DNA of 64,000 bases from Candidatus Kerfeldbacteria bacterium. GTDB taxonomy: Bacteria > Patescibacteriota > Patescibacteriia > UBA9570 > XYC2-FULL-38-9. The notes under the pieces were generated by a model. That model ran no database searches. It was not told where the DNA came from and saw only the letters and a program-made list of their open reading frames with translations. The first letter of the stretch is position 1, and each line of letters begins with the position of its first letter. This document shows, piece after piece, positions 3,043-58,638 of the stretch. The stretch spans positions 455,411 to 519,410 of the forward strand of contig JACPGJ010000008.1 of NCBI GenBank assembly GCA_016182555.1, given 5' to 3'. A program made the position numbers and the translations under genes.

Positions 3043-4185
3043 TTATTTTTGCACTATCTTCGCTAAGGCGCGCACCACATAATCAACATCTTCTATCGTC
3101 GTACTCCGACCGAGCGTGAGACGAAGACTGCGACGTGCGTCTTGGCGTGCATACCCGAGAGCAAGTAACACGTGTGATGGTTCCAGTGAACCGGCGGTAC
3201 ACGCAGAACCAAGTGAAGCAGCAATCCCCTCTTGGTCAAGATGCAATAATAATGCTTCGCCATCAACCTCAGGGATAAATACGTTGAGATTATTTGGCAC
3301 ACGGCGTGTGCGGTCACCATTGAGGCGGCTGTGCGGAATGGCGCTAAGAATAGCGTCCATCAGGCGGTCGCGTAATTGCGTGAGGCGCATATTTTCCTGC
3401 TGTTGCTCGGCATGGACTAATTGCAGGGCAGCCGCGAAACCAACAATCCCCGCAACATTTTCTGTGCCGGGGCGCAGGCCGTGCTCTTGGTGCCCACCAT
3501 AGAGGAGTGGCCGCAAGGTTACGCCGCGTTTCACATATAAAGCTCCCACACCTTTAGGGCCATACACTTTACTGGCATTGATGCTGAGAAGATCCACACC
3601 GAGTTTGCCCATGTCGAGTGGTTGGCTTTCAGTCGCTTGGCAGGCATCGGTATGAAAGAGTATTTTTGAGTTAACGGCTTTCACTAGCTGAACGGTTTCT
3701 GTGACTGGTTGAATAGTGCCAATTTCGTTATTCACCATCATCATGCTCACGAGAATCGTTGTTTCTTTTACTGCAGCAACGAATTGTTGTGGATTCACAA
3801 TGCCGTTGGGTGCAACCGGCACGATTGTGAGTTCAAACCCCTCGCGTTCTAATGCCCGACACGTGTCAAGAACAGCAGGATGTTCAATAGCGGTGGTCAC
3901 AATGTGCCCACGGCCAAGATGACGTGCCGCTCCAAGTAACGCCATATTGATACTCTCGGTTCCGCCGGCAGTAAACACTAATTCCTGCGGCGAACAATGC
4001 AAAAAACGGGCAATCGTTGTGCGTGCGTCATCAATAGCGCGGCGAGCACGGTAACCAGGTGTGTGTGCTGAAGATGGATTCGCATACTCTTCACGCAACC
4101 ACGGTTCCATAGCCGAAAACACCTCGGGTGCAAGTGGAGTGGTGGCGGCATGGTCAAGGTAAATGCGGCGCTGTTGTTCAGACAT
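3043..4185 (-). CDS. cysteine desulfurase (class V aminotransferase, IscS/NifS family)
   Basis: 380-aa ORF; PLP-lysine region SINASKVYGPKGVGALYV and C-terminal active-site Cys loop (SLGSACTAGS); no iscU neighbour. Confidence 0.85.
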   Translation of the reverse strand: MSEQQRRIYLDHAATTPLAPEVFSAMEPWLREEYANPSSAHTPGYRARRAIDDARTTIARFLHCSPQELVFTAGGTESINMALLGAARHLGRGHIVTTAIEHPAVLDTCRALEREGFELTIVPVAPNGIVNPQQFVAAVKETTILVSMMMVNNEIGTIQPVTETVQLVKAVNSKILFHTDACQATESQPLDMGKLGVDLLSINASKVYGPKGVGALYVKRGVTLRPLLYGGHQEHGLRPGTENVAGIVGFAAALQLVHAEQQQENMRLTQLRDRLMDAILSAIPHSRLNGDRTRRVPNNLNVFIPEVDGEALLLHLDQEGIAASLGSACTAGSLEPSHVLLALGYARQDARRSLRLTLGRSTTIEDVDYVVRALAKIVQK

Positions 4186-4402
4186 ATATGACTAGCATAC
4201 AACCGATGCCAACGAAGTCAAGAACCGTAGAATATATACATTCGCGTTTGAATGTAAAGCATCCTCGAACCCATCACTTTCTAAAGGTGTGCATTTAGCA
4301 TATATACTTTTTATTAAAAAGAGGATATACTTTAAAGAACAAATATGTAAATGTACTGAAAAAACTTCACGTATTTGTCATTAATGATTTCATCTTACTA
4401 TT

Positions 4403-4897
4403 ATGGAGGCATTATTAGGTGAGAGCGCGGCATCGCCAAAAAAAAATAGACCAGAACTATCAAAAAAATTACCTACTGATAATGTTGAAAATGCTGAGAT
4501 ACATGCAACTGAACCTCATAATGCTATTGACTATACCAGCCCATCTGAAAGCAACGAAACTTGGCAACAGATACTCGATGCCCTAAGGGAAGCAAATGCT
4601 GGAGTTGATCATTCTGTGGCTACTCCAAGCAACGATCTTGAAACACTGGGACGAAGTATGAGAGAGCAGCTTACAAAAGAGCAGGCTAACGGTGGCTCAA
4701 AAACCAAAAGCATGCTATCGCCAGATGAAGTGAACGCAATTGCCGCGGCATTAGAAGAACCAACAGGACTCCTTGATGGTACATTTGAACCACAAGATTT
4801 GCTAGACATGACAAAGGAAAAATATGACGCATGGGAAAAAAAGCAAGCACTGGAAGAAGATCCTGAAGATCCCACTTTTTCTGAAGGAGAGCGGTAA
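4403..4897 (+). CDS. hypothetical acidic protein
   Basis: 164-aa ORF, Glu/Asp-rich, no recognisable motif; first gene of the low-GC stretch. Confidence 0.4.
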   Translation: MEALLGESAASPKKNRPELSKKLPTDNVENAEIHATEPHNAIDYTSPSESNETWQQILDALREANAGVDHSVATPSNDLETLGRSMREQLTKEQANGGSKTKSMLSPDEVNAIAAALEEPTGLLDGTFEPQDLLDMTKEKYDAWEKKQALEEDPEDPTFSEGER

Positions 4898-4948
4898 ACA
4901 AATAACTTTTTTTGTGCTACCCTACGTAAAACAGAACTTATCTAAAGT

Positions 4949-5010
4949 GTACCCCATTGTATTGAGAATTGGAACACCTTGATTCAAGATTTGAGGCATT
5001 GGTTTACTGT
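4949..5010. repeat. ~60-bp intergenic repeat, copy 1 of 3
   Basis: gtaccccattgtattgagaattggaacaccttgattcaagatttgaggcattggtttactgt; first 40 nt nearly identical to the copies at 6263 and 7344. Confidence 0.65.
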
Positions 5011-5038
5011 ATTGCAGCAAATGAATAAATAAACATAT

Positions 5039-6202
5039 TTATTGCGCAATTTGTTTCATATTTTTCCAACTTAACACGTGCCCTTGGCTACGTTGTTGAT
5101 TTTGCATACCGCCATAAATAACATATCCATGCTCTGCTGACATTCCAGCTAAATTCGTCCAGTACTGAATACCTTTAAAATAATCTGAAACAATTGTTTT
5201 ACCAGATTTAATTTCAATAGGAATTAATTGGTCACCTTGTTCAATAATACAATCAATTTCATGCCCTAAACGATCTCGCCAAAAATAACAATTGGGTTGT
5301 GCACCTTGATTAAAACGAAACTTCATCAATTCAGCAATAATAAAAGATTCAAATAAACCCCCATATAAATAATGCGTTTTTAATTGCGCAACATTCGTAA
5401 TATGCAATAAAGCACATGCTAAACCCGTATCATAAAAATAGAGTTTTGGCATTTTTATCAACCGTTTACTAAAATTTTTATGATGAGGCTGTAATAAAAA
5501 TACGATATAGCTAGACTCTAAAATACTCATCCACGCTTTTGCCGTATTATGCGTAATTCCACAATCATTGGCTAAAGAAGATAAATTCAGAATTTGTCCA
5601 ATTCTCCCAGCACATAATTTAATAAATTTTTGAAAGGCCTGTAGGTCAGAAATATTTTTAATCAAACGAACATCGCGCTCAACATACGTTTGAATATAAC
5701 TAGAATACCATTCAGAAGGATTCAGGTGTTGATCATAAATGCGTGGATAACATCCTGTAAACAAATAGCTCTCTATTGATTTTGTTTTGCTACTCGCTTG
5801 CTCTAATTCTTCTAAACTTAATGGTAATAACGTGAGCATTGCCACACGTCCGGCCAGAGTTTGCGAAACATGCTGTTGCAATAAATAGTTATGCGACCCT
5901 GTTAAGATAAATCGACCATTGACTGGCTGATTATCAATCATCGTTTGTAAATAGGATAGTAAATCTGGTACCCGTTGAATTTCATCAAAAATAGCCCCTT
6001 CTTGATATTGATCTAAAAATCTACGGGGGTCTGTTTGGGCAAATTCACGGGTATCTAAATCTTCGAGTGATACATACGGTTTATCACGAAACACCTTACG
6101 TACCAGAGTCGTTTTACCTGCTTGGCGTGGGCCAATGACTGCAATGGCTGGCATTTGTTGAGCCAATTGTTTTAACTTAACTTCTACATTACGCTTAATC
6201 AT
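5039..6202 (-). CDS. AAA+ ATPase of the DUF4143/COG1373 family
   Basis: 387-aa ORF; Walker A GPRQAGKTTL, Walker B-like IFDEIQRV, then TGSHNYLL; C-terminal region typical of DUF4143. Confidence 0.8.
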   Translation of the reverse strand: MIKRNVEVKLKQLAQQMPAIAVIGPRQAGKTTLVRKVFRDKPYVSLEDLDTREFAQTDPRRFLDQYQEGAIFDEIQRVPDLLSYLQTMIDNQPVNGRFILTGSHNYLLQQHVSQTLAGRVAMLTLLPLSLEELEQASSKTKSIESYLFTGCYPRIYDQHLNPSEWYSSYIQTYVERDVRLIKNISDLQAFQKFIKLCAGRIGQILNLSSLANDCGITHNTAKAWMSILESSYIVFLLQPHHKNFSKRLIKMPKLYFYDTGLACALLHITNVAQLKTHYLYGGLFESFIIAELMKFRFNQGAQPNCYFWRDRLGHEIDCIIEQGDQLIPIEIKSGKTIVSDYFKGIQYWTNLAGMSAEHGYVIYGGMQNQQRSQGHVLSWKNMKQIAQ

Positions 6203-6262
6203 AAAGCTATATTAGCATAGGTGTGACAAATTGTCAATTGAATTTACAATCTGTCCTATTTG

Positions 6263-6324
6263 GTACCCCATTGTATTGAGAATTGGAACACCTTGATTCA
6301 GGATTTGAAGCTGTGATTTACTGT
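6263..6324. repeat. ~60-bp intergenic repeat, copy 2 of 3
   Basis: gtaccccattgtattgagaattggaacaccttgattcaggatttgaagctgtgatttactgt between the ATPase and Fic genes. Confidence 0.65.
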
Positions 6325-6342
6325 CTTGCCTCAAATTGTAAA

Positions 6343-7311
6343 TTAACCATTTTGTAACAGTGCGTAAGACTCAAGCAATGCATCATAGATAAATGATTCC
6401 AAAAAAATGTATTTCTCTTCCAGTTGCGCTCGCTGTAAATAAGTATAATACGCTTGTTTCTTCTCTTGCTTAATTAACACTGGAGGTAATCCATATTGCA
6501 GAGCTTGTGCATGCATGAGTAATCTTCCAACACGTCCATTGCCATCAGAAAACGGATGAATTTGTTCAAACTGGGCATGAGTTTTTGCCATGTGCATGAC
6601 AATATCTTCTTCAGATGAGTGCTGGAGATCCTGGCCAAACGTATACATTCGATCATCAATCTTCAAATAATTCGTCGTAGGAACATGCGAACCAACGATG
6701 CGTACCCCATGACGGCGGTACATACCTGCGTCAGATCGAATACCATTCATCAAAATGGAATGAATTTTCTTTATCCAATCTTCTGTTATTTGTTTTGGCT
6801 TTTTATGTTGTGTTAACCACTGCATCAAATTTCCCAGTGCAGCTTGATGATTTTTTGCTTCTTGATGCTCAACGACTGTTTTATCAGGAATGGTCACATT
6901 ATCAAAAATAACCGCTCGCACTTCCGGTTCAGTGAATGTACTCCCTTCAATACTATTCGTATGATATGTCAGTTCAAGGACAAATGTTTCATACAGATCT
7001 TGCCGTTGTACTATATACTGTAACGGATGAGGAAATTGTTTTTTCAGTTCCGCCACCCGTTGCTTTTTTACCAAAAGCTCAGAGTCCGTCACTTCCTTAA
7101 CACCCGTATATTCTTGATACAATAGATCAATCTTCGCTTGTGCAATTTTACGTGGTAAACTCTTCCCATTCACCCAACTATTGAGTGTGACAAAACTGAC
7201 CTGCAGCATTTGAGCAAGCTCTGTTTGCGTTTTACCGCTTACTTTCAAAATTCGTTGAATTTTTTGCTGTACTGTCATAAGTACAGTATAACAAACTTTA
7301 TAAAGAATCAC
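6343..7311 (-). CDS. Fic-family AMPylator fused to an N-terminal XRE-type HTH
   Basis: 322-aa ORF; Fic motif HPFSDGNGRVGRLL; inhibitory-helix-like TNSIEG upstream of it; N-terminal HTH (KTQTELAQMLQVSFVTLNSWVNGKSLP). Confidence 0.8.
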   Translation of the reverse strand: MILYKVCYTVLMTVQQKIQRILKVSGKTQTELAQMLQVSFVTLNSWVNGKSLPRKIAQAKIDLLYQEYTGVKEVTDSELLVKKQRVAELKKQFPHPLQYIVQRQDLYETFVLELTYHTNSIEGSTFTEPEVRAVIFDNVTIPDKTVVEHQEAKNHQAALGNLMQWLTQHKKPKQITEDWIKKIHSILMNGIRSDAGMYRRHGVRIVGSHVPTTNYLKIDDRMYTFGQDLQHSSEEDIVMHMAKTHAQFEQIHPFSDGNGRVGRLLMHAQALQYGLPPVLIKQEKKQAYYTYLQRAQLEEKYIFLESFIYDALLESYALLQNG

Positions 7312-7343
7312 AAGTTTTATAAAGTTTCAATACTCAATGGTAT

Positions 7344-7403
7344 GTACTGCATTGTATTGAAAATTGGAACACCATAATTCAAAATTTACGCCATTGGTTT
7401 AAG
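7344..7403. repeat. ~60-bp intergenic repeat, copy 3 of 3
   Basis: gtactgcattgtattgaaaattggaacaccataattcaaaatttacgccattggtttaagga upstream of the Fic gene. Confidence 0.6.
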
Positions 7404-7419
7404 GAATTGAATGAAATTT

Positions 7420-7448
7420 TTGACACCTGTTTAAATGCTAATTAGAAT
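7420..7448 (+). promoter_or_regulatory. sigma-70-type promoter TTGACA-N17-TAGAAT
   Basis: TTGACAcctgtttaaatgctaatTAGAAT about 45 nt upstream of the 7491 ORF. Confidence 0.45.
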
Positions 7449-7490
7449 ATATATATAATTTAATAGTGTATTAAACAAAAAACTAGCTAT

Positions 7491-8129
7491 ATGGAAAGAT
7501 ATAATCCTGACACAAGACAAATGCATGGCCCATTTGAAAAATTTCAATTACGAGATATCCATTGGAAAGATACATTACCTTATACATTGCAAAAAAAAGC
7601 AGAAAGGCTAGACCCCTATTTTGATGAGCAAACTAATGATTATTCAAATCAATACTTCCATCAAAATTTTATAATCAACAATGATCAATTGGATTTTTTT
7701 GGATTAAGAAAAGTTTTTAAAAAAAAGGATCTTCAAATATTACTTAGAATCTGTAACAATGATTCGTTTATTCATCTTAAAATAGAACTTAATAAATATA
7801 CTGACAATTATTGTGTAATCACTGCTATAAAAAAAGAACGTGGATCAGCTACTTTACCTTCTAAATTGGGTATACAATTATATGAAAAATTGTTTGATTT
7901 CTTACAAGATTTAGCTGATACAACAGGTAAGCCGGTTACGCATATTGTAAGACGTGCTCCTGAAGAAATGAGCGATACACCTCTTACAATAGAACGTTGG
8001 AATCAAATATTTTTTCCTATTCTAAATAAAAATGGGAGAGTATACACCCTCGATCCAGAAACTGAACATACTTTTGAACATACTTTTCTACCTGAATCAA
8101 AAAAACCAAATACTCTGCAAGCTGCCTGA
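7491..8129 (+). CDS. hypothetical protein (AT-rich, probably foreign)
   Basis: 212-aa ORF, markedly lower GC than neighbours, no recognisable motif; abuts the tRNA-Glu 3' side. Confidence 0.5.
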   Translation: MERYNPDTRQMHGPFEKFQLRDIHWKDTLPYTLQKKAERLDPYFDEQTNDYSNQYFHQNFIINNDQLDFFGLRKVFKKKDLQILLRICNNDSFIHLKIELNKYTDNYCVITAIKKERGSATLPSKLGIQLYEKLFDFLQDLADTTGKPVTHIVRRAPEEMSDTPLTIERWNQIFFPILNKNGRVYTLDPETEHTFEHTFLPESKKPNTLQAA

Positions 8130-8214
8130 AAAAAACTGTTATCTTCTATACACGCAAGTGCGATAGATAAAAAATGTCTAAAACGCATCAAAAAATGGAA
8201 TTTTTTGTTGTCTG

Positions 8215-8286
8215 TACCCGCACGGGGAATCGAACCCCGATTATCGCGTTGAGAACGCGGCGTCCTAACCGTTAGACGATGCGGGC
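8215..8286 (-). tRNA. tRNA-Glu (anticodon CTC)
   Basis: Minus-strand sequence gcccgcatcgtctaacggttaggacgccgcgttCTCaacgcgataatcggggttcgattccccgtgcgggta folds as a cloverleaf: 7-bp acceptor, TTCGATT T-loop, anticodon loop ttCTCaa. Confidence 0.8.
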
Positions 8287-8375
8287 AAGGGGTTTTGTGC
8301 CGCCATGCAACACAAAAAACGCAGATGGATTCTACGTTTTTTTGATTGCTCAGTCAAGACGGACGGACAAAATTA

Positions 8376-9704
8376 TTATTGTTGAAGATATTGTGGCTGT
8401 ATCTCGTCTTTCCAATAATCGACACTGAAAAAATCATCCGGTGGAATATCTGTGATATTTTTTTGTTCATCAACAGTTGCGTGAGAAACTACTTGATTGT
8501 CTCGATACATGGTGTATTCCAGAATAGTATCATCCGTGGTATTAATAACAAATTCCACAGCTGGATCTGGTAAGCTTTCTTCTTCATTAAAAAATACATT
8601 TGACAGTTGATAACGTACACGTATGATTTCTTTACCAAGGTATTGTTCTTTTTCTTGTGACACCGGTTCTCCTAATTCATCAATACGCTGACGAATACTT
8701 AATGGATCCATAAATTGAGTTTCATATATATTTTCAATAGCGCGACCGAGAAAATCTTTTTGAACTGTTTTTTTATACTCTTCACGAAATGTTTCCAATT
8801 CTTCATTGCTAACAGTGCGAACCTGTATCGTATCAATATTCACTGCATACACTGCTGAGGAACGATCTCCGCTGACTATTTGAAATAAATGATCAGATGT
8901 ATTTTCCCTATGCGCGTTATATCGCATATCGCTGATATTTAGTGATACTTGATGTTGATATTTACCCTCAGCATCAACCCATGAATTAACGACGGATATG
9001 GAATCAATAAATCCAGATGCGCCAGTAGACATTTGTATATTCTCGTCATTTATTGATTCAGCGGTCGTCCAGGTAATGGATAGATCGCCACGAGGATCAT
9101 CTAAATGTTGTGCATGAACATTATTGAGAGCTAATGTTGTACCATTCATGAGTAATTTGGCAGTTCCCATATCAAAACCATCGCTACATTCAAATAAAAG
9201 ATTGACGTCCTTTACCGATGTAGTTTTTTCTTGTTGATAATCCACACGACAGCTTTGATTATCAACAGCGGAATAAAGAGTAGAACCTGTGAGCAAATCA
9301 AAACGCACATTGTTCCCCTGTTGCCAAATAGACACCTTCCCCATAAATCCACTGATTTCCTGATAACGAAATTCTGTAGAATTATTTGGATAAAAGGTAT
9401 TGTCAATAGATTTTGCAAGAACCTGGTTAATGTATATTCCATTTTTTGTATGTGGCCATGAACCAAATTCAATGATGCCAAAGACCGCAATAGCAAGCAC
9501 AACAGGAATGACACCAAAAGAAAATTTGTGTAATTTCATAAAACGAAATGGATGATGAGTAAATAGTGATGAAGAAATTAAATTTTCTTTCTGAAGAATG
9601 CGCGCAATGCGTTGTTGTAATTCACCTTGAAACACTTGGCGTTGTGGAATGATTTCACGTTGTAAAATTCGTGTTAATCGTTTGTTGAAGAAAAATTGTT
9701 TCAT
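8376..9704 (-). CDS. membrane-anchored protein, putative anti-sigma factor
   Basis: 442-aa ORF overlapping the ECF sigma gene by ATGA; ~60-aa cytoplasmic N-terminus, one TM (FGVIPVVLAIAVFGIIEF), large extracytoplasmic domain. Confidence 0.55.
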   Translation of the reverse strand: MKQFFFNKRLTRILQREIIPQRQVFQGELQQRIARILQKENLISSSLFTHHPFRFMKLHKFSFGVIPVVLAIAVFGIIEFGSWPHTKNGIYINQVLAKSIDNTFYPNNSTEFRYQEISGFMGKVSIWQQGNNVRFDLLTGSTLYSAVDNQSCRVDYQQEKTTSVKDVNLLFECSDGFDMGTAKLLMNGTTLALNNVHAQHLDDPRGDLSITWTTAESINDENIQMSTGASGFIDSISVVNSWVDAEGKYQHQVSLNISDMRYNAHRENTSDHLFQIVSGDRSSAVYAVNIDTIQVRTVSNEELETFREEYKKTVQKDFLGRAIENIYETQFMDPLSIRQRIDELGEPVSQEKEQYLGKEIIRVRYQLSNVFFNEEESLPDPAVEFVINTTDDTILEYTMYRDNQVVSHATVDEQKNITDIPPDDFFSVDYWKDEIQPQYLQQ

Positions 9705-10231
9705 AAATGTAATGGCGCTAATTGTTGACGAAGTATTTTTAATGCGCGAGATAGTGACGCGGCAACCGTACGCTCACCAATCTGCATAATTCCAGCAATT
9801 TCTTTATTGGATAGACCCGCTTGGTGACGCAGCAGCACGATCTCTTTTTGTCGTGACGGCAGTTGATCAATCGCCGCAAGTGCATGAGCAAGATTCAAAG
9901 AAAGATTTGCAACGGCATCACTCATTGCCGCAACAGGAATTTCAATAGCATCGATCGGAATATTGGTGTGTCGCTTTTTTCGGTAATAATCGATAAGCGC
10001 ATGACGAGCGATCGTGAAAATCCAACTACGCAATGTCGCTCCATCTTGTTCGTGGAAATCGTGAATATGTCGAACAACTTTTTCAAAAATGTCGCCAACA
10101 ATATCTTCTGTTTCTACCGTATTCCCAACACGAAAATAGATAAAGCGATACACGGGTTGAAAATAATCGTGAACAATAGTTTCGATTTGATATCTATGCA
10201 TAGGCAATATAAGGAAACGAATGAACAACAA
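9701..10231 (-). CDS. ECF-type sigma-70 family RNA polymerase sigma factor
   Basis: 176-aa ORF; region 2 (FIYFRVGNTVETEDIVGDIFEKV...ARHALIDYYRKK) and region 4 HTH (LPSRQKEIVLLRHQAGLSNKEIAGIMQIGERTV); start may be the internal Met at 10201. Confidence 0.8.
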   Translation of the reverse strand: MLFIRFLILPMHRYQIETIVHDYFQPVYRFIYFRVGNTVETEDIVGDIFEKVVRHIHDFHEQDGATLRSWIFTIARHALIDYYRKKRHTNIPIDAIEIPVAAMSDAVANLSLNLAHALAAIDQLPSRQKEIVLLRHQAGLSNKEIAGIMQIGERTVAASLSRALKILRQQLAPLHL

Positions 10232-10288
10232 AAATACTGCTTTTGGACGAATTCCGCAAGCAGTATTTTGAAATATTGTTATAGCAAT

Positions 10289-11323
10289 TTATACCGTTGC
10301 TTTACGCCCAACACCAATAGCCTGTTCTATTAAACGATGAGAATATCCATATTCGTTGTCATACCAGGCGACGACTTTCACCAAATTTCCGCCGACCACA
10401 TTGGTGAGCGCTAAATCAACGAGCGAAGAAACAGAGCGACCAATGACGTCGCTGGAGACAATAGGATCATTCGTGACTTCCAGGATGCCTTTGTAGCGCG
10501 GTGTCTCGGCAGCGCTCGTGAGAGCAGCGTTTACTTCTTCGGCAGTGACATCGCGCTTCAGTAACGCCGTAATATCGCTGACTGAACCGACCGGTACGGG
10601 TACACGAAATGCGAGGCCATCAAAAATACCGTTAAGCTGTGGAACTGTTTCCGCAGTAGCGATCGCTGCTCCGGTGGTGGTGGGAACAATATTGAGCGCA
10701 GCACTACGGGCACGACGAGGATCTTTATGAAAGCCGTCCACCAGGTTTTGATCTGCCGTGTATCCATGAATCGTGGACATCATCGCTTTTTCAATACCAA
10801 AAGTGCGCTCTAAAACTTCCATCACCGGCGCGATACAATTTGTGGTACACGATGCATTGGAAATGACTTGGTCTTTTGTTGCGTCAAAATCTTCGTGGTT
10901 CACACCAAGCACAAATGTACCAACAGGCTCCCCTGTTTTTGCTGGGGCGGAAATAATCACCACTTTCGCACCGCCCGCGAGGTGCCTTGCAGCCCCCTCT
11001 TTATTCGTAAACACACCCGTACATTCCAACACAACATCAACTGCCAAATCTTTCCACGGCAATTTTTCCGGTTCTTTTTCCGCGAATTTTTTGAACTGCA
11101 CGCCGTCAACGGAAATGAATCCGGAACCAGAGCTCACTGTATGTGGAAACGCACGATACACCGAGTCATATTTCAATACTTCTGCGGCTTGGGCTTCTGT
11201 TGATAGGTCGTTAATCGCAACGATTTCTACTTCATCAGCATGATGCTCATACGCAATTTTGAATGCGATTTTACCAATGCGTCCAAAACCGTTAATAGCG
11301 ATACGAATTTTTTTCTGTGCCAT
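10289..11323 (-). CDS. gap: glyceraldehyde-3-phosphate dehydrogenase
   Basis: 344-aa ORF; NAD-binding INGFGRIGK and catalytic ASCTTNCIAP motifs. Confidence 0.9.
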   Translation of the reverse strand: MAQKKIRIAINGFGRIGKIAFKIAYEHHADEVEIVAINDLSTEAQAAEVLKYDSVYRAFPHTVSSGSGFISVDGVQFKKFAEKEPEKLPWKDLAVDVVLECTGVFTNKEGAARHLAGGAKVVIISAPAKTGEPVGTFVLGVNHEDFDATKDQVISNASCTTNCIAPVMEVLERTFGIEKAMMSTIHGYTADQNLVDGFHKDPRRARSAALNIVPTTTGAAIATAETVPQLNGIFDGLAFRVPVPVGSVSDITALLKRDVTAEEVNAALTSAAETPRYKGILEVTNDPIVSSDVIGRSVSSLVDLALTNVVGGNLVKVVAWYDNEYGYSHRLIEQAIGVGRKATV

Positions 11324-47007: not shown

Positions 47008-48270
47008 TTATAACTCCCAGGCACGAATATGCTCTATGCCATTCCGGTTCCCCAGTGAAATATCATCCAAGCTGATCACTATTTTTTTATACTGATCTCG
47101 AATGGCTTCCAAATTTCCAAATTCTCTTTCTATGGTTTCCGTAGAATCCAATATATACGCTACTTGCACATAGATGCGCTCCTTTCCTTTTTCCAGAACA
47201 AAGTCTACCTCTTTATTACGCAACTCCCCCACCCGCACCGTATAGCCCTGCGCTTTGTAATGAAGAAAAATCGCATTCTCCAGAATATGCCCAATGTTGC
47301 TATCTGCTTGCTGCAAACCTTGCGAACGCAATGCCAAATCATTCAAATAATATTTTTTTGTGTTGGTGAACACGGCCTTTCCGCGAATATCAAAACGGTC
47401 GACGGCGTGAATAAGATACGTTTGCTCCAGATAGGTGAGATATTTCCCCAACGTTTCATTATTGGTGGGGGTGTGGTTACTATTCAAATAACGAACAATC
47501 TTTTCTGTAGAAAACAGACTGCCGATGTTGCCCGCAATAAATTGAAAAAGCTGTTCGAGCAACACCGCATTTTTTACTGCATATTTTTGCACCACATCTT
47601 GAAACAAAATAGTATTTACTAATGCGTGAATATAATGCGTTTGAATCTCTGTGTCTTTTTGCAAATGATATAATTCCGGCAAACCACCCAATTCCAAATA
47701 GCGCACAAACTGTTCTTTGGTTTTTGGTACATCAAAAAATTGCGTAAATTCATCAAACGAAAACGATTGCACTTCAAACGGCACATACCGGCCACTTAAA
47801 TAGGTAGAGAGTTCTGAAGAGAGCATGGTGGAATTTGAACCGCTGATATACACCTCATACGCATCACGGTAATCTTGCGAAAAAGAATTGATTGCCCTCT
47901 CCCACTGATCAATTTCTTGCACCTCATCTATAAAGAGAAAAACTTTACCTTTCACCTGTTCTGTTTTTTTGTAGAGCTCAACGAGTTTTGCTAAATCGGT
48001 GTGCGTTTTCACCATTTCAAAATCGACGATCTCTTTATTGAGATAGAAAATATTTTTCGGGTTCACGCCTTGCGCAATCAATTCTTTCATTATTTGACGC
48101 AGCAAATAGCTCTTTCCCACGCGCCGCTGCCCCATAATGACTTTTATTAAACCATTATTGATGAAGGGTTTTATGCGTTCAAGATAGGTTGTTCTGGTTA
48201 AACCCGTTGGTATTTCTTGATTTTTCTCCCAAAAATTGGATTTTTTGAGATATTCTAATATTTCGTTCAT
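47008..48270 (-). CDS. AAA+ ATPase of the DUF4143/COG1373 family (second copy)
   Basis: 420 aa; Walker A GQRRVGKSYL, Walker B LFIDEVQEI, sensor ISGSNSTML; C-terminal DUF4143-like region. Confidence 0.8.
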   Translation of the reverse strand: MNEILEYLKKSNFWEKNQEIPTGLTRTTYLERIKPFINNGLIKVIMGQRRVGKSYLLRQIMKELIAQGVNPKNIFYLNKEIVDFEMVKTHTDLAKLVELYKKTEQVKGKVFLFIDEVQEIDQWERAINSFSQDYRDAYEVYISGSNSTMLSSELSTYLSGRYVPFEVQSFSFDEFTQFFDVPKTKEQFVRYLELGGLPELYHLQKDTEIQTHYIHALVNTILFQDVVQKYAVKNAVLLEQLFQFIAGNIGSLFSTEKIVRYLNSNHTPTNNETLGKYLTYLEQTYLIHAVDRFDIRGKAVFTNTKKYYLNDLALRSQGLQQADSNIGHILENAIFLHYKAQGYTVRVGELRNKEVDFVLEKGKERIYVQVAYILDSTETIEREFGNLEAIRDQYKKIVISLDDISLGNRNGIEHIRAWEL

Positions 48271-48346
48271 ATTTGAATTTTATGTTATTTTTACATATAT
48301 TTCAAGTATACTTGAATTTTATGCATCTGTCAATGAATACATAACT

Positions 48347-48375
48347 TTGACACAAGAAATATTGGGGGTATGATA
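48347..48375 (+). promoter_or_regulatory. sigma-70-type promoter TTGACA-N16-TATGAT
   Basis: TTGACAcaagaaatattgggggTATGAT about 70 nt upstream of the RelA/SpoT-like gene. Confidence 0.4.
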
Positions 48376-48446
48376 AAATTATGAAATACTGATGTAGTAT
48401 ACAGAAGTCGAATAATTTATTTTTTTATTCTTAGAAATAAGCCAAA

Positions 48447-49502
48447 ATGTCATTCGCGAAACCATCAAAAGTGTCCAGAAGTCGAATAAATAAAGCCGGT
48501 AAAACTCTTAAAAAAGAGATTATTAATTCAGATTTTGAATCTGCAGTAAAGTTAGCTGATAATTGGAGAGCGTGTCATGCCTATCCCATTAATACCTTCC
48601 AATCAACATTGAGAACCAAGCTTCGAAAATATCAAAATGAACCTATCGTAGCGCAACGTCTTAAACGCATGCCAACAATTATAGATAAACTGCAACGATA
48701 TCCAAACATGCAGCTAACAACAATGCAAGATATTGGAGGTATTAGGGCAATTCTAGGATCAATCGAAGATGTTTATAAACTAGCAAAAGACTACAGAGAG
48801 AACAAACGCCTTCCTCATGAACTTTATAATGAGAATAATCATATTCAGACTCCGAGAAATGAAGATGGCTATCGTAGTTTGCATCTAATGTACAAATACC
48901 GAAATCCACAAGCAAAAGAATATGATGGTCTACGAGTAGAGCTACAAATACGTACAAAAACCCAACATATTTGGGCTACAGCAGTTGAAACTATGGGAAC
49001 ATTTCTAGGACAAGCGCTTAAATCAAGACAGGGGGACAAAGACTGGCTCGATTTTTTTGCCACAGTATCATCTGCATTTGCTTGCATTGAGAAAACACCA
49101 GTATTACCTAGACATCAAAACATGACAAAACTAGAAATATTTAAGGCGGTTGCAAACACAGAAAAAAAACTCGGCGCATTAGAAAAAATGAATGCATTCT
49201 ATAAAGCCGCAGATGAAATCACAGGAAAACGCAAAAGTGAAGGGTCATCGTATCATCTAATAATACTAAACTCATTAGAAAAAACTGTTGAAGTAAAACC
49301 ATATAGTCGAGATGAGTTCAAAAAGGCAGTTGCAGATTACGCTCAAATTGAAGCTGAGGCAGTGAAGGGGAAAAAAATCGAACCAGTTCTCGTATCTGCT
49401 GGTCCATTAAGCACGCTAAAACGCGCATATCCCAACTTTTTCCTTGATATTTCTGAATTCTGTAAAGCTGTAGCAGAAATAGTAGATAAAACAAAAAAGT
49501 AA
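48447..49502 (+). CDS. standalone RelA/SpoT synthetase-domain protein (toxSAS-like), 351 aa
   Basis: Rel/Spo nucleotidyltransferase motifs DIGGIRAI, GYRSLHL, ELQIRTKTQHIWATAVETMG; basic N-terminus KVSRSRINKAGKTLKK; ~130-aa C-terminal extension; AT-rich. Confidence 0.75.
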   Translation: MSFAKPSKVSRSRINKAGKTLKKEIINSDFESAVKLADNWRACHAYPINTFQSTLRTKLRKYQNEPIVAQRLKRMPTIIDKLQRYPNMQLTTMQDIGGIRAILGSIEDVYKLAKDYRENKRLPHELYNENNHIQTPRNEDGYRSLHLMYKYRNPQAKEYDGLRVELQIRTKTQHIWATAVETMGTFLGQALKSRQGDKDWLDFFATVSSAFACIEKTPVLPRHQNMTKLEIFKAVANTEKKLGALEKMNAFYKAADEITGKRKSEGSSYHLIILNSLEKTVEVKPYSRDEFKKAVADYAQIEAEAVKGKKIEPVLVSAGPLSTLKRAYPNFFLDISEFCKAVAEIVDKTKK

Positions 49503-54392: not shown

Positions 54393-55982
54393 ATGAAAAG
54401 AAAAAATATTATCTCCTTTTGTGCCATATTGAGCATTATAGGATTACTATCCGCGTACTATCTTTACACCAGCAAGGGTTGTGGAGTATCTTCAAAAATA
54501 TGTATCGAGTCTCAACGTATAAGTATACAAATTGATATTCACAAAATTGGAAACAATGGAGTAGTAACATTTGGTGTTGGTTTAACAGATAATACCGGTA
54601 CTCGATTAACAGGAACAGAACGCGATTTTCATGAACAATGGAATTTTGGTGATGAAACATCACAACCAATTCAAGAGGCCCATGCTGATGGAGCTTTGCC
54701 CACATACGAAGCAAGCTACGAAAAAAAATATAGATATACAAAACCCGGAACATATACTGCATACATGCAAATGTTAGATGCAGAAAATGAAGTGCTGCGA
54801 AAATCAAATACTATTACCGTCACAATTCCGGAATCTTCATTCACTACAGCAGCGGAAACGACAACAGACGCTACAGATAGCGCAACACAACCAGAAGAGC
54901 AACGCGGTACACTCTTCTATGCCACAAATACAAAAAAACAACTCCTTATTTCTACCTATAACCCTGATACACAAGAGACACCAACTACCCAAACCATCCC
55001 GTTTGAAGAACAGATAAACCAAACCGGTAGAAATTCTTCCGGTGGAAACGATGCGGTTCAATTCAACCCCACAACACAGGAAATATTTATTTCTACACAA
55101 GGCAAAAGTGAATCAGCCTTTGAAAATTGCATAAATACAGATGGAACCTGCACCTCGCGTATATACAAAATCACTGCCAACAGCACAACACCAACTATTC
55201 TGTACGAATCAGAAAATCCACCAATCAATTGGGTAGTCAACCCTTATGATGATTCGTTGCTACTCAGTTCAACCGTTGAGGGAAAACAGATACTCACAAA
55301 ATTGAATGCGCAAGATGGTTCGGTGGTGTTTACTCAGGAATATATTATTCCCAAAAATACTGGTCTTAAAAATCTTGTGCTCAGCAATGATGGGAAAATA
55401 CTCTACCAAGCTTCGATAGAATCAGAAGATGGAAAAGCAATCAACGAAACTCTCCGTTTACGTGAATTTGATACCACAACCGGCGAGCTTACAGAAGTAG
55501 AAATATTTCAATTCAACTCAATTGACGCAACAACCACTATTTCTCCTAATAACAAATGGATTGCATTTTATGTAAACGCCTACGAAGCGCCACAATTAGT
55601 CATATGGGAGATTAAGGGGAAACAACCGCCTTCAATAAATCCATATCCATACACATCAAAAACAACGGGAGAAATTAGTAATTTCAATCTTTCCTGGTCT
55701 GGTGACAGCAAACGTCTATTCTACATGCGTGCTGATGGTTTAGTGTATTTCGACACCACAACCGGAACACATTCATTTGTCACAACAAGTAAAGAACGCA
55801 GAGAAACGCCATTCGTGTTAGAAGCAACGGGCGCCGAATCAGAAAACTATGTCTTCTATGTTTCTTCTGTAGACAGAACCATTGTACTGTACAACACCGC
55901 AATAGGAAAATATATCACCACGCCATTTTCTATGGTGCAAGATAATGAATCAGTGAATATTAACGGAGTCGCCTGGTATTAA
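54393..55982 (+). CDS. membrane-anchored extracellular protein with N-terminal PKD-like domain
   Basis: 529 aa; N-terminal TM; WNFGDETSQ...YTKPGTYTAYMQMLD PKD-like motif; long Thr/Asn-rich C-terminal region. Confidence 0.7.
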   Translation: MKRKNIISFCAILSIIGLLSAYYLYTSKGCGVSSKICIESQRISIQIDIHKIGNNGVVTFGVGLTDNTGTRLTGTERDFHEQWNFGDETSQPIQEAHADGALPTYEASYEKKYRYTKPGTYTAYMQMLDAENEVLRKSNTITVTIPESSFTTAAETTTDATDSATQPEEQRGTLFYATNTKKQLLISTYNPDTQETPTTQTIPFEEQINQTGRNSSGGNDAVQFNPTTQEIFISTQGKSESAFENCINTDGTCTSRIYKITANSTTPTILYESENPPINWVVNPYDDSLLLSSTVEGKQILTKLNAQDGSVVFTQEYIIPKNTGLKNLVLSNDGKILYQASIESEDGKAINETLRLREFDTTTGELTEVEIFQFNSIDATTTISPNNKWIAFYVNAYEAPQLVIWEIKGKQPPSINPYPYTSKTTGEISNFNLSWSGDSKRLFYMRADGLVYFDTTTGTHSFVTTSKERRETPFVLEATGAESENYVFYVSSVDRTIVLYNTAIGKYITTPFSMVQDNESVNINGVAWY

Positions 55983-55998
55983 AATCGACAACTATTGA

Positions 55999-56346
55999 TT
56001 GAGAAAATGTATGAAAAATAAAAAATGGTTTAAGGTTCTTGTTGTATTTGTAATCATTATTGTTATTATAGCGATTATTATTTTTTTAGGATTTCAAAAA
56101 CATACGCTGAACACTACAGTGCTCTCTTGCACTGAAAAAAATCTCGTAACAACAACAGGAAAATATCGCTTTCCACCGCAGTGGGGATTAGAAGGATACA
56201 AAATTCTTGTTCATCCTCAACCAGGAGGAATGTTTGATGCGATTTATCCAAATCAAATATGTAATAGTGAATCAAATTTCGTTCATGAAATCATCGCTAT
56301 AGAATACACGGGGTTGGGTTATATTACAGCGATTTACGTTCGTTAA
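55999..56346 (+). CDS. small membrane-anchored hypothetical protein
   Basis: 115 aa; N-terminal TM (VLVVFVIIIVIIAIIIFLGF). Confidence 0.45.
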   Translation: MRKCMKNKKWFKVLVVFVIIIVIIAIIIFLGFQKHTLNTTVLSCTEKNLVTTTGKYRFPPQWGLEGYKILVHPQPGGMFDAIYPNQICNSESNFVHEIIAIEYTGLGYITAIYVR

Positions 56347-56368
56347 TTTTTATGGGGTATTTGAATTT

Positions 56369-56827
56369 ATGAAAATGAAAATTGTATCCACGATAGGTTC
56401 GATATTTATCATCATCGCTCTACTACTCTCTTACTATTTATATACTGGCAGAAGCTGCGGTGTATCTTCAAAAATATGTATAGAATCACGAAAAATAAGT
56501 GTGGGTACGAGTGTGGAAAGAATTGGAAAAAATGGAAAAGTGATCTTTAATATCGGCTTAATAGATAATACCCGCACATATGACATTGACATGCAACTAC
56601 GTGATGAATGGAATTTTGGTGATGAGAATTCTACAACGCAATTAAGCGAGGAAGTACATACCGGTAGAATGATGCCAGATTATTTAATTGCCAGCTATAC
56701 AAAAGAATATACCTACACCAAGCCAGGAACATATACCGTTTTATTGAAAATCATTGATGCTACACACCACACAACATACACAGCAGAACCACTGAGCGTT
56801 ACGATTCCCGAATCTGCATTCAAGTAA
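56369..56827 (+). CDS. PKD-like domain protein, paralog of the N-terminus of 54393..55982
   Basis: 152 aa; aligns to the first ~150 aa of the upstream gene (LLSxYYLYTxxxCGVSSKICIESxxIS...WNFGDE...YTKPGTYTV...TIPES). Confidence 0.65.
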   Translation: MKMKIVSTIGSIFIIIALLLSYYLYTGRSCGVSSKICIESRKISVGTSVERIGKNGKVIFNIGLIDNTRTYDIDMQLRDEWNFGDENSTTQLSEEVHTGRMMPDYLIASYTKEYTYTKPGTYTVLLKIIDATHHTTYTAEPLSVTIPESAFK

Positions 56828-58052: not shown

Positions 58053-58227
58053 ATCGTATTTTGGCTAATCATTAATCTCTCCTTCCCAGTATAGCAACGG
58101 CTTCAAAAAAGTCGAGCTGATCACTTGCAAACTAATCATGAGACCCCCTTGCATTGCAACACTATTCAGCCTATAATAAATTAAGACGTCCCCACCCTTT
58201 GTGGGTTTTATTATTTTCTTTTTTGCT

Positions 58228-58638
58228 ATGGATGAGGACGTTAAATGGTTACTACAAAAATTGGTTACCTGGACAAAACTCAAGCTGAAAATACATATTT
58301 TACAAGATACTCATCTTGTTTACTTTCACGAAAGAGAAATCTGGTGGTGTTCCCTAGGCATAAATATAGGATATGAACAAAACGGAAAAAATCAGTATTT
58401 TGAACGACCAGTGTTAGTGGTAAAAAAATTCAACAGATATTTACTATGGGCAGTTCCCTTAACCAGTAAACAAAAATCGGGAAAATTTTATTATGAAACA
58501 TGGTATGAAGGAAAAAAATACTCTATCATTTTGTCTCAAATGAGAGCAATCAGTAGCAAACGACTGTTGAGAAAAATACGCACTGTACCGCAGTCAGAAT
58601 TTACTGAGGTAAAAAAACAGATAAAACTCTTTTTATAA
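58228..58638 (+). CDS. MazF/PemK-fold endoribonuclease toxin homolog (solitary)
   Basis: Track ORF 58201 starts at a GTG inside a hairpin and is trimmed to the ATG at 58228; EREIWWCSLGINIGYEQNGK...ERPVLVVKKFN...LWAVPLTSK...SQMRAISSKRLLRKIRTV matches the MazF/PemK pattern. Confidence 0.6.
   Translation: MDEDVKWLLQKLVTWTKLKLKIHILQDTHLVYFHEREIWWCSLGINIGYEQNGKNQYFERPVLVVKKFNRYLLWAVPLTSKQKSGKFYYETWYEGKKYSIILSQMRAISSKRLLRKIRTVPQSEFTEVKKQIKLFL

Follow-up and report, generated by a model that had tools for sequence, protein, structure and literature searches.

The stretch of DNA analysed here, called the window in what follows, comprises 64 kb of a 598,550-bp contig from a metagenome-assembled genome of Candidatus Kerfeldbacteria, a member of the candidate phyla radiation (CPR; Patescibacteria), and it carries an AT-rich block of genes between a cysteine desulfurase gene and tRNA-Glu. 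The core of this block (4947-7424) is, on balance, probably an array of single-gene cassettes that lack an integrase and were added at an attachment (att)-type site of a large serine recombinase (LSR), within a hotspot adjacent to tRNA-Glu. The array core would consist of two cassettes, one for a DUF4143 ATPase and one for an HTH-Fic protein, with a separate promoter-like site for each, and possibly of a third that extends up to the tRNA. A preliminary description of the block was correct in what it reported, but it overlooked the main structural feature, which is a set of three direct repeats.

Direct repeats in a variable slot beside tRNA-Glu

The block had been described as a distinctly AT-rich stretch that holds four unrelated genes and abuts the 3' end of a tRNA gene on the minus strand, and each of these points holds. 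The GC content is 0.352 at 4200-8213 against 0.435 for the whole window; tRNA-Glu lies on the minus strand with its 3' end facing the block (8214-8286 according to ARAGORN, 8215-8286 according to Rfam); and open reading frame (ORF) and Pfam analyses return a 164-aa acidic orphan, a DUF4143 ATPase, an HTH-Fic protein, and a 212-aa orphan, which are unrelated to one another. The absence of an integrase and of a duplicated tRNA segment was likewise borne out, as Pfam detects no recombinase domain in the ORFs between 1926 and 10231, a profile of 121 LSRs is negative against the whole window in six frames, and both the 24-mer and the 15-mer from the 3' end of tRNA-Glu are single-copy in the 64 kb (allowing up to 3 and up to 2 mismatches, respectively). 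The features of the block, from left to right, are as follows.

4403-4897, plus strand: acidic 164-aa orphan (pI 4.4), the leftmost gene of the slot, outside the repeat-bracketed part
4947-5030, plus strand: repeat A, core GTACCCCATTGTATTGAGAATTGGAACACC; 27-codon frame without a start codon, VPHCIENWNTLIQDLRHWFTVLQQMNK, then stop; nhmmer 3e-26
5039-6202, minus strand: AAA_14+DUF4143 ATPase, 387 aa, putative cassette 1; Walker A motif GPRQAGKT; GC 0.352
6209-6237, minus strand: promoter-like TTGACA-17-TAATAT with upstream TG; 10/12, consensus match only
6261-6342, plus strand: repeat B; TTG start, frame cut by a premature TGA after 17 codons, VPHCIENWNTLIQDLKL, then stop
6343-7278, minus strand: HTH_3+Fic protein, 311 aa, putative cassette 2; motif HPFSDGNGRVGR intact
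7285-7313, minus strand: promoter-like TTGTGA-17-TATACT with upstream TG; 9/12, consensus match only
7341-7424, plus strand: repeat C, the most diverged copy; frame VLHCIENWNTIIQNLRHWFKELNEIFDTCLNAN, then stop, running to 7445, no start codon
7420-7448, plus strand: promoter-like TTGACA-17-TAGAAT, within the repeat C tail and ahead of the 212-aa orphan; 11/12, the best in the region
7491-8129, plus strand: 212-aa AT-rich orphan, GC 0.304, singleton cluster, within the 870-nt unit from repeat C to the tRNA
8214-8286, minus strand: tRNA-Glu(CTC), the conserved right anchor of the variable slot

The repeated unit, hereafter the module, has a 24-nt core, CATTGTATTGAGAATTGGAACACC, for which three matches were found against 0.00 expected by chance. 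Repeats A and B are identical at a fraction of 0.86 over 77 nt, including 38 identical nucleotides in the core, and repeat C has an identity of 0.77 to A and 0.71 to B. According to nhmmer, the 64 kb contain three copies, all of them inside the block, and a search with nhmmer --max revealed no degenerate further copies, for example at 4200-4400, where a search for a degenerate tRNA end had been proposed. The copies are spaced by 1314 and 1081 nt, and 870 nt separate repeat C from the tRNA; repeats A and B bracket the DUF4143 gene alone, and repeats B and C bracket the Fic gene alone. The window therefore shows the pattern of a composite array, with units of 1314 and 1081 nt, direct copies of a site, and one non-recombinase gene in each unit, and the 212-aa orphan in the last 870 nt may be a third cassette. 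The cassette genes are convergent with the frame of the repeats, while the flanking genes are of mixed orientation. All three frames in the window are defective as ORFs, and the core is nevertheless kept.

In an independent assembly of the source sample (Logan), contigs L001, L010, and L011 are broken at the module. The DUF4143 unit assembles alone, as the repeat-bounded 1336-nt contig L010, and the acidic orphan is carried by L001, whose end falls inside repeat A. Such breaks are compatible with excision or integration, but they are not specific to these events.

Gene order in related genomes indicates that Kerfeldbacteria have a hypervariable slot, or hotspot, between tRNA-Glu and the cysteine desulfurase gene. 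The closest relatives of the cysteine desulfurase come from this group (60-64% identity), and the flanking proteins are syntenic in the relatives at 60-74% identity, while the interior is wholly different in each of them. In L018/L019 and L020, the order is ScpA, ScpB, (pseudouridine synthase), peptidase S11, Sm_multidrug_ex, GAPDH, and tRNA-Glu(CTC), followed by a variable region of 4-4.6 kb and then by cysteine desulfurase, (ferredoxin), HrcA, GrpE, DnaK, and DnaJ. The variable genes of L018 encode a 223-aa protein, G6PD, a 57-aa protein, and an ABC transporter, and those of L020 encode three orphans; L021 retains the desulfurase-HrcA-GrpE side only, and upstream of the desulfurase it has a further, unrelated set of genes. 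None of the four block ORFs of the window occurs in the syntenic loci L018-L021. Comparison with relatives, which the preliminary description had proposed as a check, thus shows flanks that are kept and block genes that are not, and the conserved synteny without compositional difference that would speak against an acquired block was not observed. In an alignment of the tRNA-Glu region with the relatives, homology ends at the last base of the tRNA, so that the block begins exactly at the tRNA 3' end (8213/8214). The anticodon stem of this tRNA reads CGCG..CGCG in the window and CAGG..CCTG in L018 (5314-5388) and L020 (5893-5965); these differences are compensatory, and the remainder of the tRNA is nearly identical to that of the relatives.

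The genes bracketed by the repeats belong to defence-like families. The DUF4143 ATPase (Pfam E-values of 6.6e-52 and 1.8e-28 for its two domains) matches PADLOC family PDC-S01 at 8.9e-108, and the Fic protein (Pfam Fic, 2.1e-19; HTH_3, 4.9e-05) matches PDC-S04 at 1.7e-40 and SoFic at 2.8e-31, with an NCBIfam SoFic score of 45.9 that lies far under the cut-off of 550. Both are therefore regarded as candidate single-gene defence systems, the PDC families themselves being candidates and not validated systems. Neither orphan has a match in Pfam, NCBIfam, PADLOC, or PHROG.

The module in other loci and its link to a serine recombinase

All copies of the module conserve an imperfect dyad, GTGaCCCA-N13-TGGaACAC, and conservation is strongest at the nucleotide level, with a core of ~30 nt that is invariant across loci whose tails have diverged. 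Consensus folding yields seven conserved and invariant pairs with zero covariation, and a hairpin fold is not significant for the three window copies on either strand (DNA folding z-scores from -1.23 to +0.63), as would be expected of a protein-binding site rather than of a structured RNA or DNA. An attC site or another structured element was ruled out in this way, as folding of both strands and of the consensus shows only the dyad. The module also contains a short frame on the plus strand, with the consensus V-x-[HY]-C-I-E-N-W-N-T-[LI]-I-x-x-[LI]-[KR]-x-W..., which comprises 31-36 codons in other loci and in repeat C, 27 in repeat A, and 17 in repeat B. The frame diverges in the manner of coding sequence, with 139 third-position differences against 88 and 73 at the other positions, 58 synonymous codon pairs against 9-35 in the five other frames, and one stop codon against 3-15 in the other frames. 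The tails of the frame form two subfamilies conserved at the protein level, and several module copies have GTG or TTG at the same codon.

Several other identities of the module were considered and rejected. Rfam at E<=1 finds only the tRNA over 3500-10500, and in L003, L005, L007, L008, and L012 it finds only RNase P and LOOT RNAs, both away from the module. The module is not the 3' end of a larger target gene, since searches of 5.8e9 proteins by word index and of 1.84e9 representatives by hidden Markov model (HMM) gave only ORFs of 34-158 aa over the module and no intact long protein. A possible likeness of the peptide to C-terminal motifs of DDE transposases was dropped, as no Pfam match was obtained at E<=10. 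A tRNA or tRNA 3' fragment was likewise rejected, with ARAGORN and Rfam negative and alignment to 10 tRNAs giving p = 0.01-0.99 without specificity for tRNA-Glu. Most left arms of the module open with TGG-T-7nt, resembling an antisense tRNA CCA end; the likeness to real tRNAs is not significant.

A metagenome scan and protein searches found the module in L003, L005/L008, L007, L012/L013, L022, L023, and L024/L025, where it stands at the borders of variable regions. Homology always starts abruptly at one shared nucleotide, and the DNA on its left side is unrelated in every locus. Apart from L005/L008, each of the six loci has a hairpin and T-run immediately before the module, with a sequence that differs from locus to locus; these hairpins look like bidirectional terminators and lie at the following positions.

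L003, 13360-13404: terminator-like hairpin directly before the module
L007, 6283-6330, minus strand: terminator-like hairpin directly before the module
L012, 6050-6093: terminator-like hairpin directly before the module
L022, 283-321: terminator-like hairpin directly before the module
L023, 6040-6085: terminator-like hairpin directly before the module
L024, 10000-10040: terminator-like hairpin directly before the module

The polarity of the surroundings is constant in L003, L012, L023, and L024, where housekeeping genes stand to the left of the module (HflX and an MFS protein; AstE and Cys/Met enzymes; ClpP, HSP20, and HD proteins; NUDIX, PdaC, and M17 proteins) and orphan or defence-like genes to the right, including a Dsr1-like protein, PDC-M36A, and ImmA/IrrE with DUF4411. 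Judged by sequence similarity, the cargo of the window fits these defence-like neighbours. L007 fits the polarity in part: its left neighbour is a 411-aa uncharacterised protein, followed by RNase P RNA and glycosyltransferases. The LOOT RNA of this locus (79.9 bits) lies within the defence-like cargo on the right, the LOOT and RNase P RNAs occupying 1386-1501 and 7672-8055. In L022, the module is followed on its right by a gene 42% identical to the 278-aa GC-rich gene (55%) that occupies this place in L005 (1202-2038), pointing to a recurrent right-hand neighbour of the module. An upstream ORF with an in-frame TAG in L022 (3-967) reads in-frame into the short frame of the module; neither the LSR profile nor PHROGs verify it as a recombinase, and it was not used as evidence. 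L003 and L008, which come from one metagenome, share the module and both end ~126-128 nt past its start, which is the expected assembly signature of a direct repeat of ~127 nt at the two junctions of one element. Chance matches were set aside, namely L004, L006, and L009 from the metagenome core scan and a core match inside a Vibrio dehydrogenase gene, the sole result of the scan of a genome collection. Viral contigs gave no match to the core, to a looser core, or to the LSR described below.

One element is represented by L008 and, from a different metagenome, by L005. In it, the module adjoins the gene of a 555-aa LSR, identical in both, which has the domains Resolvase, Recombinase, and Zn_ribbon_recom and matches phrog_95 integrase at 1.5e-57. 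The C-terminus of this LSR reads ...FTVGDPLY, and its TGA stop codon falls at the centre of the dyad. The family of the L008 LSR comprises more than 1250 homologues, and those with a source name are all from the CPR. L014 (2005-3709) and L015 (10001-11693) encode LSRs of ~550 aa that are 44-52% identical to the L008 LSR; at its 3' end, each gene shares 20-22 nt with a convergent tRNA-Pro, and the end of the LSR gene therefore represents the attachment junction in this family. Most of the C-termini among the 120 LSR matches listed also appear, from their sequences, to read as antisense tRNA (..SRGAGN, ..PRGIEPLF, ..RTRTYDP), a reading verified at the DNA level in L014 and L015 only, and tails encoded in this manner imply that the tail of the enzyme changes with the integration state. 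None of the titles and abstracts surveyed describes tRNA-overlapping LSR genes or state-dependent LSR tails.

In this LSR family, the tRNA points toward the element, which adjoins its 3' side; the block has the same position and orientation relative to tRNA-Glu. The module of the window lies on the plus strand, like the direction of the LSR genes, and the tRNA lies on the minus strand to the right, matching the rule of the family. By its sequence, the module has the appearance of an LSR attachment site, that is, an imperfect dyad around a centre at which the stop codon of the L005/L008 LSR falls, and we infer that it functions, or functioned, as such a site.

The array could then have been built by circular DNAs, each with one copy of the module, which would have inserted successively at a resident copy with an LSR acting in trans; such an enzyme would exist, or have existed, in the source genome. 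Each insertion would bring its own copy of the module, and so would duplicate the module and add one gene, the cassettes presumably entering one at a time. The 86% identity of repeats A and B, which flank the DUF4143 gene, points to the insertion of the DUF4143 unit as the youngest event, and copy C would be older or native. As the window has no recombinase and all three frames are damaged, the array is probably fixed now. The missing tRNA repeat says nothing against this route, as integration by LSRs leaves no long duplicate of a tRNA.

Competing explanations and known systems

Several observations weigh against the addition of cassettes by an LSR. No LSR, LSR remnant, or other recombinase was found in the 64-kb window by tblastn or by the 121-sequence profile in six frames, and the link between module and LSR comes from a single element, the LSRs of L005 and L008 being identical. 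LSR reactions need no long homology, and direct repeats of 80-127 nt are atypical for them; repeats of this length would allow plain homologous recombination, too. The module has a genuine protein-coding signature, which would be needless for a pure att site, and the window copies lack the hairpin and T-run that precede the module in six other contexts. Among the assembled contigs, no circular junction, no empty site, and no occurrence of the same cassette in another context was found. Finally, multi-copy arrays of the module were found in this window only, and the module is missing from the three Kerfeldbacteria relatives and from viral contigs.

The main rival draws on several of these points. 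According to this view, the module would be a small gene or regulatory unit that is mobile or has been duplicated, encodes a mini-protein of ~34 codons, possibly with a terminator function, and accompanies defence genes; the array would have arisen by homologous recombination or tandem duplication, and the neighbouring LSR gene would be a further cargo context. The clear coding signature of the plus frame, the ORFs of 34-71 aa proposed by gene callers, the two conserved tail subfamilies, the GTG or TTG at the same codon in several copies, and the length of the repeats, which at 80-127 nt suffices for RecA-mediated exchange, all argue for it. However, the strongest conservation is at the nucleotide level and follows the dyad symmetry, the homology sets in abruptly at a single nucleotide, to the left of which the DNA is unrelated in every locus, and the terminator directly upstream leaves no space for a promoter or ribosome-binding site. 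Moreover, the stop codon of the LSR lies at the exact centre of the dyad, with the same geometry as the tRNA junctions of the LSR family, and the three window copies are broken as ORFs and yet retain the core. We consider this explanation unlikely. More improbable is a decayed island of the tyrosine-integrase type at the 3' end of tRNA-Glu, which would have lost its integrase and its tRNA repeat and in which the internal repeats would be incidental. The preliminary description had left the origin open between a decayed island and acquisition by another mechanism; its view of the block as a variable and compositionally deviant insertion zone stands, and the internal repeats of the module now allow a more specific reading. 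The abutment on the tRNA 3' end, the low GC content, and the absence from relatives suit a decayed island, but there is no remnant of an integrase and no tRNA-derived repeat even with three mismatches, and the island leaves unexplained why repeats spaced by one gene recur at the borders of variable regions and at the end of an LSR gene.

Vertical inheritance of ordinary lineage-specific genes, with the low GC content reflecting relaxed or functional constraint and the repeats belonging to an intergenic family of the genome, appears very improbable. The proteins MBI2411430-MBI2411440 of the window each form a singleton cluster at 90% identity, so that no close relative proves a recent gain, and low-GC patches are common in the window. 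However, the module occurs only three times in the 64 kb, all within the block, and yet is common to unrelated metagenomic loci, and the flanks are syntenic while the interior differs in each relative. The remaining candidate, an integron-type array with attC-like sites and an IntI tyrosine recombinase, would account for one gene per repeat in direct orientation, and defence genes are common cargo of chromosomal integrons. Its probability is minimal, since the folding and domain results effectively refute it: neither strand of the repeats folds into a hairpin, the R''/L''-L'/R' organisation is missing, and Pfam detects neither intI nor another tyrosine recombinase in the block or in the flanking ORFs. 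In addition, each cassette gene comes with a promoter-like site of its own and points away from any conceivable platform, and the homologous module adjoins a serine and not a tyrosine recombinase.

An LSR-built array has parallels in known systems. The SCC/SCCmec composite islands of staphylococci are inserted by the large serine recombinases CcrAB/CcrC at the 3' end of rlmH. As in these islands, the attachment sequence of a serine recombinase would overlap a short coding segment in the window, each element would have its own copy of the site, so that direct repeats lie between tandem elements, and some units would lack a recombinase and depend on its supply in trans, with accessory genes as cargo. 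PMC9430635 and PMC10581047 provide examples. The window differs from these systems in that its units measure only ~1.1-1.3 kb with one gene each, its repeats span 80-127 nt against ~15-30 nt in SCC, and no intact rlmH-like target gene was found in the searches of 5.8 and 1.84 billion proteins; in addition, the LSR clade is specific to the CPR and otherwise targets tRNA genes, and the host is a Patescibacterium. Cis-mobilizable elements (CIMEs) and the site-specific accretion of integrative elements, of the ICESt1/ICESt3 type in streptococci or as tandems of phages with integrative and conjugative elements (see PMC5704250 and PMC13651849), resemble the window in that arrays arise by repeated integration at one att site and include att-flanked elements without an integrase of their own, which could be mobilised in cis or in trans. 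Those elements mostly use tyrosine integrases, extend over several kilobases, and carry conjugation or mobilisation genes, whereas the block of the window is devoid of mobilisation functions and its associated recombinase is of the serine type.

With integrons the block shares one gene per repeat, direct repeats, defence-like cargo, and the newest unit, as it would appear, at one end; attC hairpins, IntI, and attI are absent from the window, which instead has genes with their own promoter-like sites and a repeat that encodes a short peptide frame. Further counterparts are the tRNA-associated LSR elements of the CPR (L014, L015), which belong to the LSR family of L008, in which the recombinase gene ends inside the attachment site, and which lie on the 3' side of a convergent tRNA, as the block does relative to tRNA-Glu. 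In contrast to these, the window has no LSR, and its repeated module is not a tRNA; the L014/L015-type relatives that were inspected have no internal repeat array. None of the titles and abstracts surveyed describes LSR elements or cassette arrays in CPR/Patescibacteria.

A bolder extension, which we put forward as a speculation with a low probability, is that the CPR possess a gene-capture platform that is integron-like but run by LSRs, in which an att module of 80-127 bp with a frame of ~34 codons is copied at each insertion and stacks integrase-less defence cassettes next to a tRNA. Expression of the short frame might be limited to one recombination state, such as a circular or tandem junction that couples the frame to the LSR gene's 3' end, and its product might be a directionality or regulatory peptide. 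To our knowledge, very little is known about the routes by which accessory genes are gained and exchanged in the CPR/Patescibacteria, whose genomes are small. Should the module prove to be a functional LSR site, it would offer a compact and searchable marker for variable and defence loci across the CPR, it would represent a serine-recombinase analogue of cassette stacking in integrons or SCC, and the recombinase family, with its natural att sites (tRNA 3' ends and the module), could provide possible tools for genome engineering. Even a conservative reading still explains the puzzle of an island with neither an integrase nor a tRNA repeat.

Promoter-like sites, neighbouring genes, and other low-GC patches

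The preliminary description had ascribed consensus promoters to the DUF4143, Fic, and 212-aa orphan genes, a claim that is upheld in part. Each of these genes has a promoter-like site with 9-11 of 12 consensus matches, but the region as a whole is not enriched in such sites, with 25 promoter-like matches against 18.3 +/- 4.3 in shuffled sequences. A distance of 7 nt separates the end of the -10 box from the ATG in the DUF4143 gene and the Fic gene alike, suggesting leaderless or near-leaderless transcripts for both genes. For the Fic gene, the start is placed at the ATG at 7278, which gives 311 aa, as does the gene predicted on L011; in the ORF list, the gene starts further upstream, at a GTG at 7311.

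The deviation in composition is unevenly distributed among the four genes of the block. Relative to the 64 other ORFs of the window, the GC z-scores are -0.3 for the acidic orphan (GC3, -1.6), -2.1 for the DUF4143 gene, -1.3 for the Fic gene, and -3.2 for the 212-aa orphan. The low GC content runs past the tRNA to ~10.2 kb, and the ORF of 442 codons at 8376-9704 has a value of 0.357. This ORF forms part of a further feature on the 5' side of the tRNA.

8376-10231, minus strand: 442-aa orphan (GC 0.357) and an ECF sigma factor (Pfam), between tRNA-Glu and GAPDH

In the relatives, the gap between GAPDH and tRNA-Glu measures only 50-300 nt and the pair of genes is absent, which points to a second lineage-specific insertion and to a variable zone that is wider than first described.

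Further low-GC patches of the window lie at 47-49.5 kb, 54-57 kb, and 58.2 kb, and such accessory patches are frequent across it. A second AAA_14+DUF4143 ATPase (47008-48270, minus strand) adjoins a protein with a RelA_SpoT domain (48447-49502, plus strand), both with a GC content of 0.37-0.39, and this patch (47008-49502) is another defence or toxin-like islet, without a copy of the module. At 54393-56827, three low-GC ORFs with PD40 and PKD matches stand in a row, and a gene for a PemK/MazF-type toxin at 58201-58638 has a GC content of 0.32.

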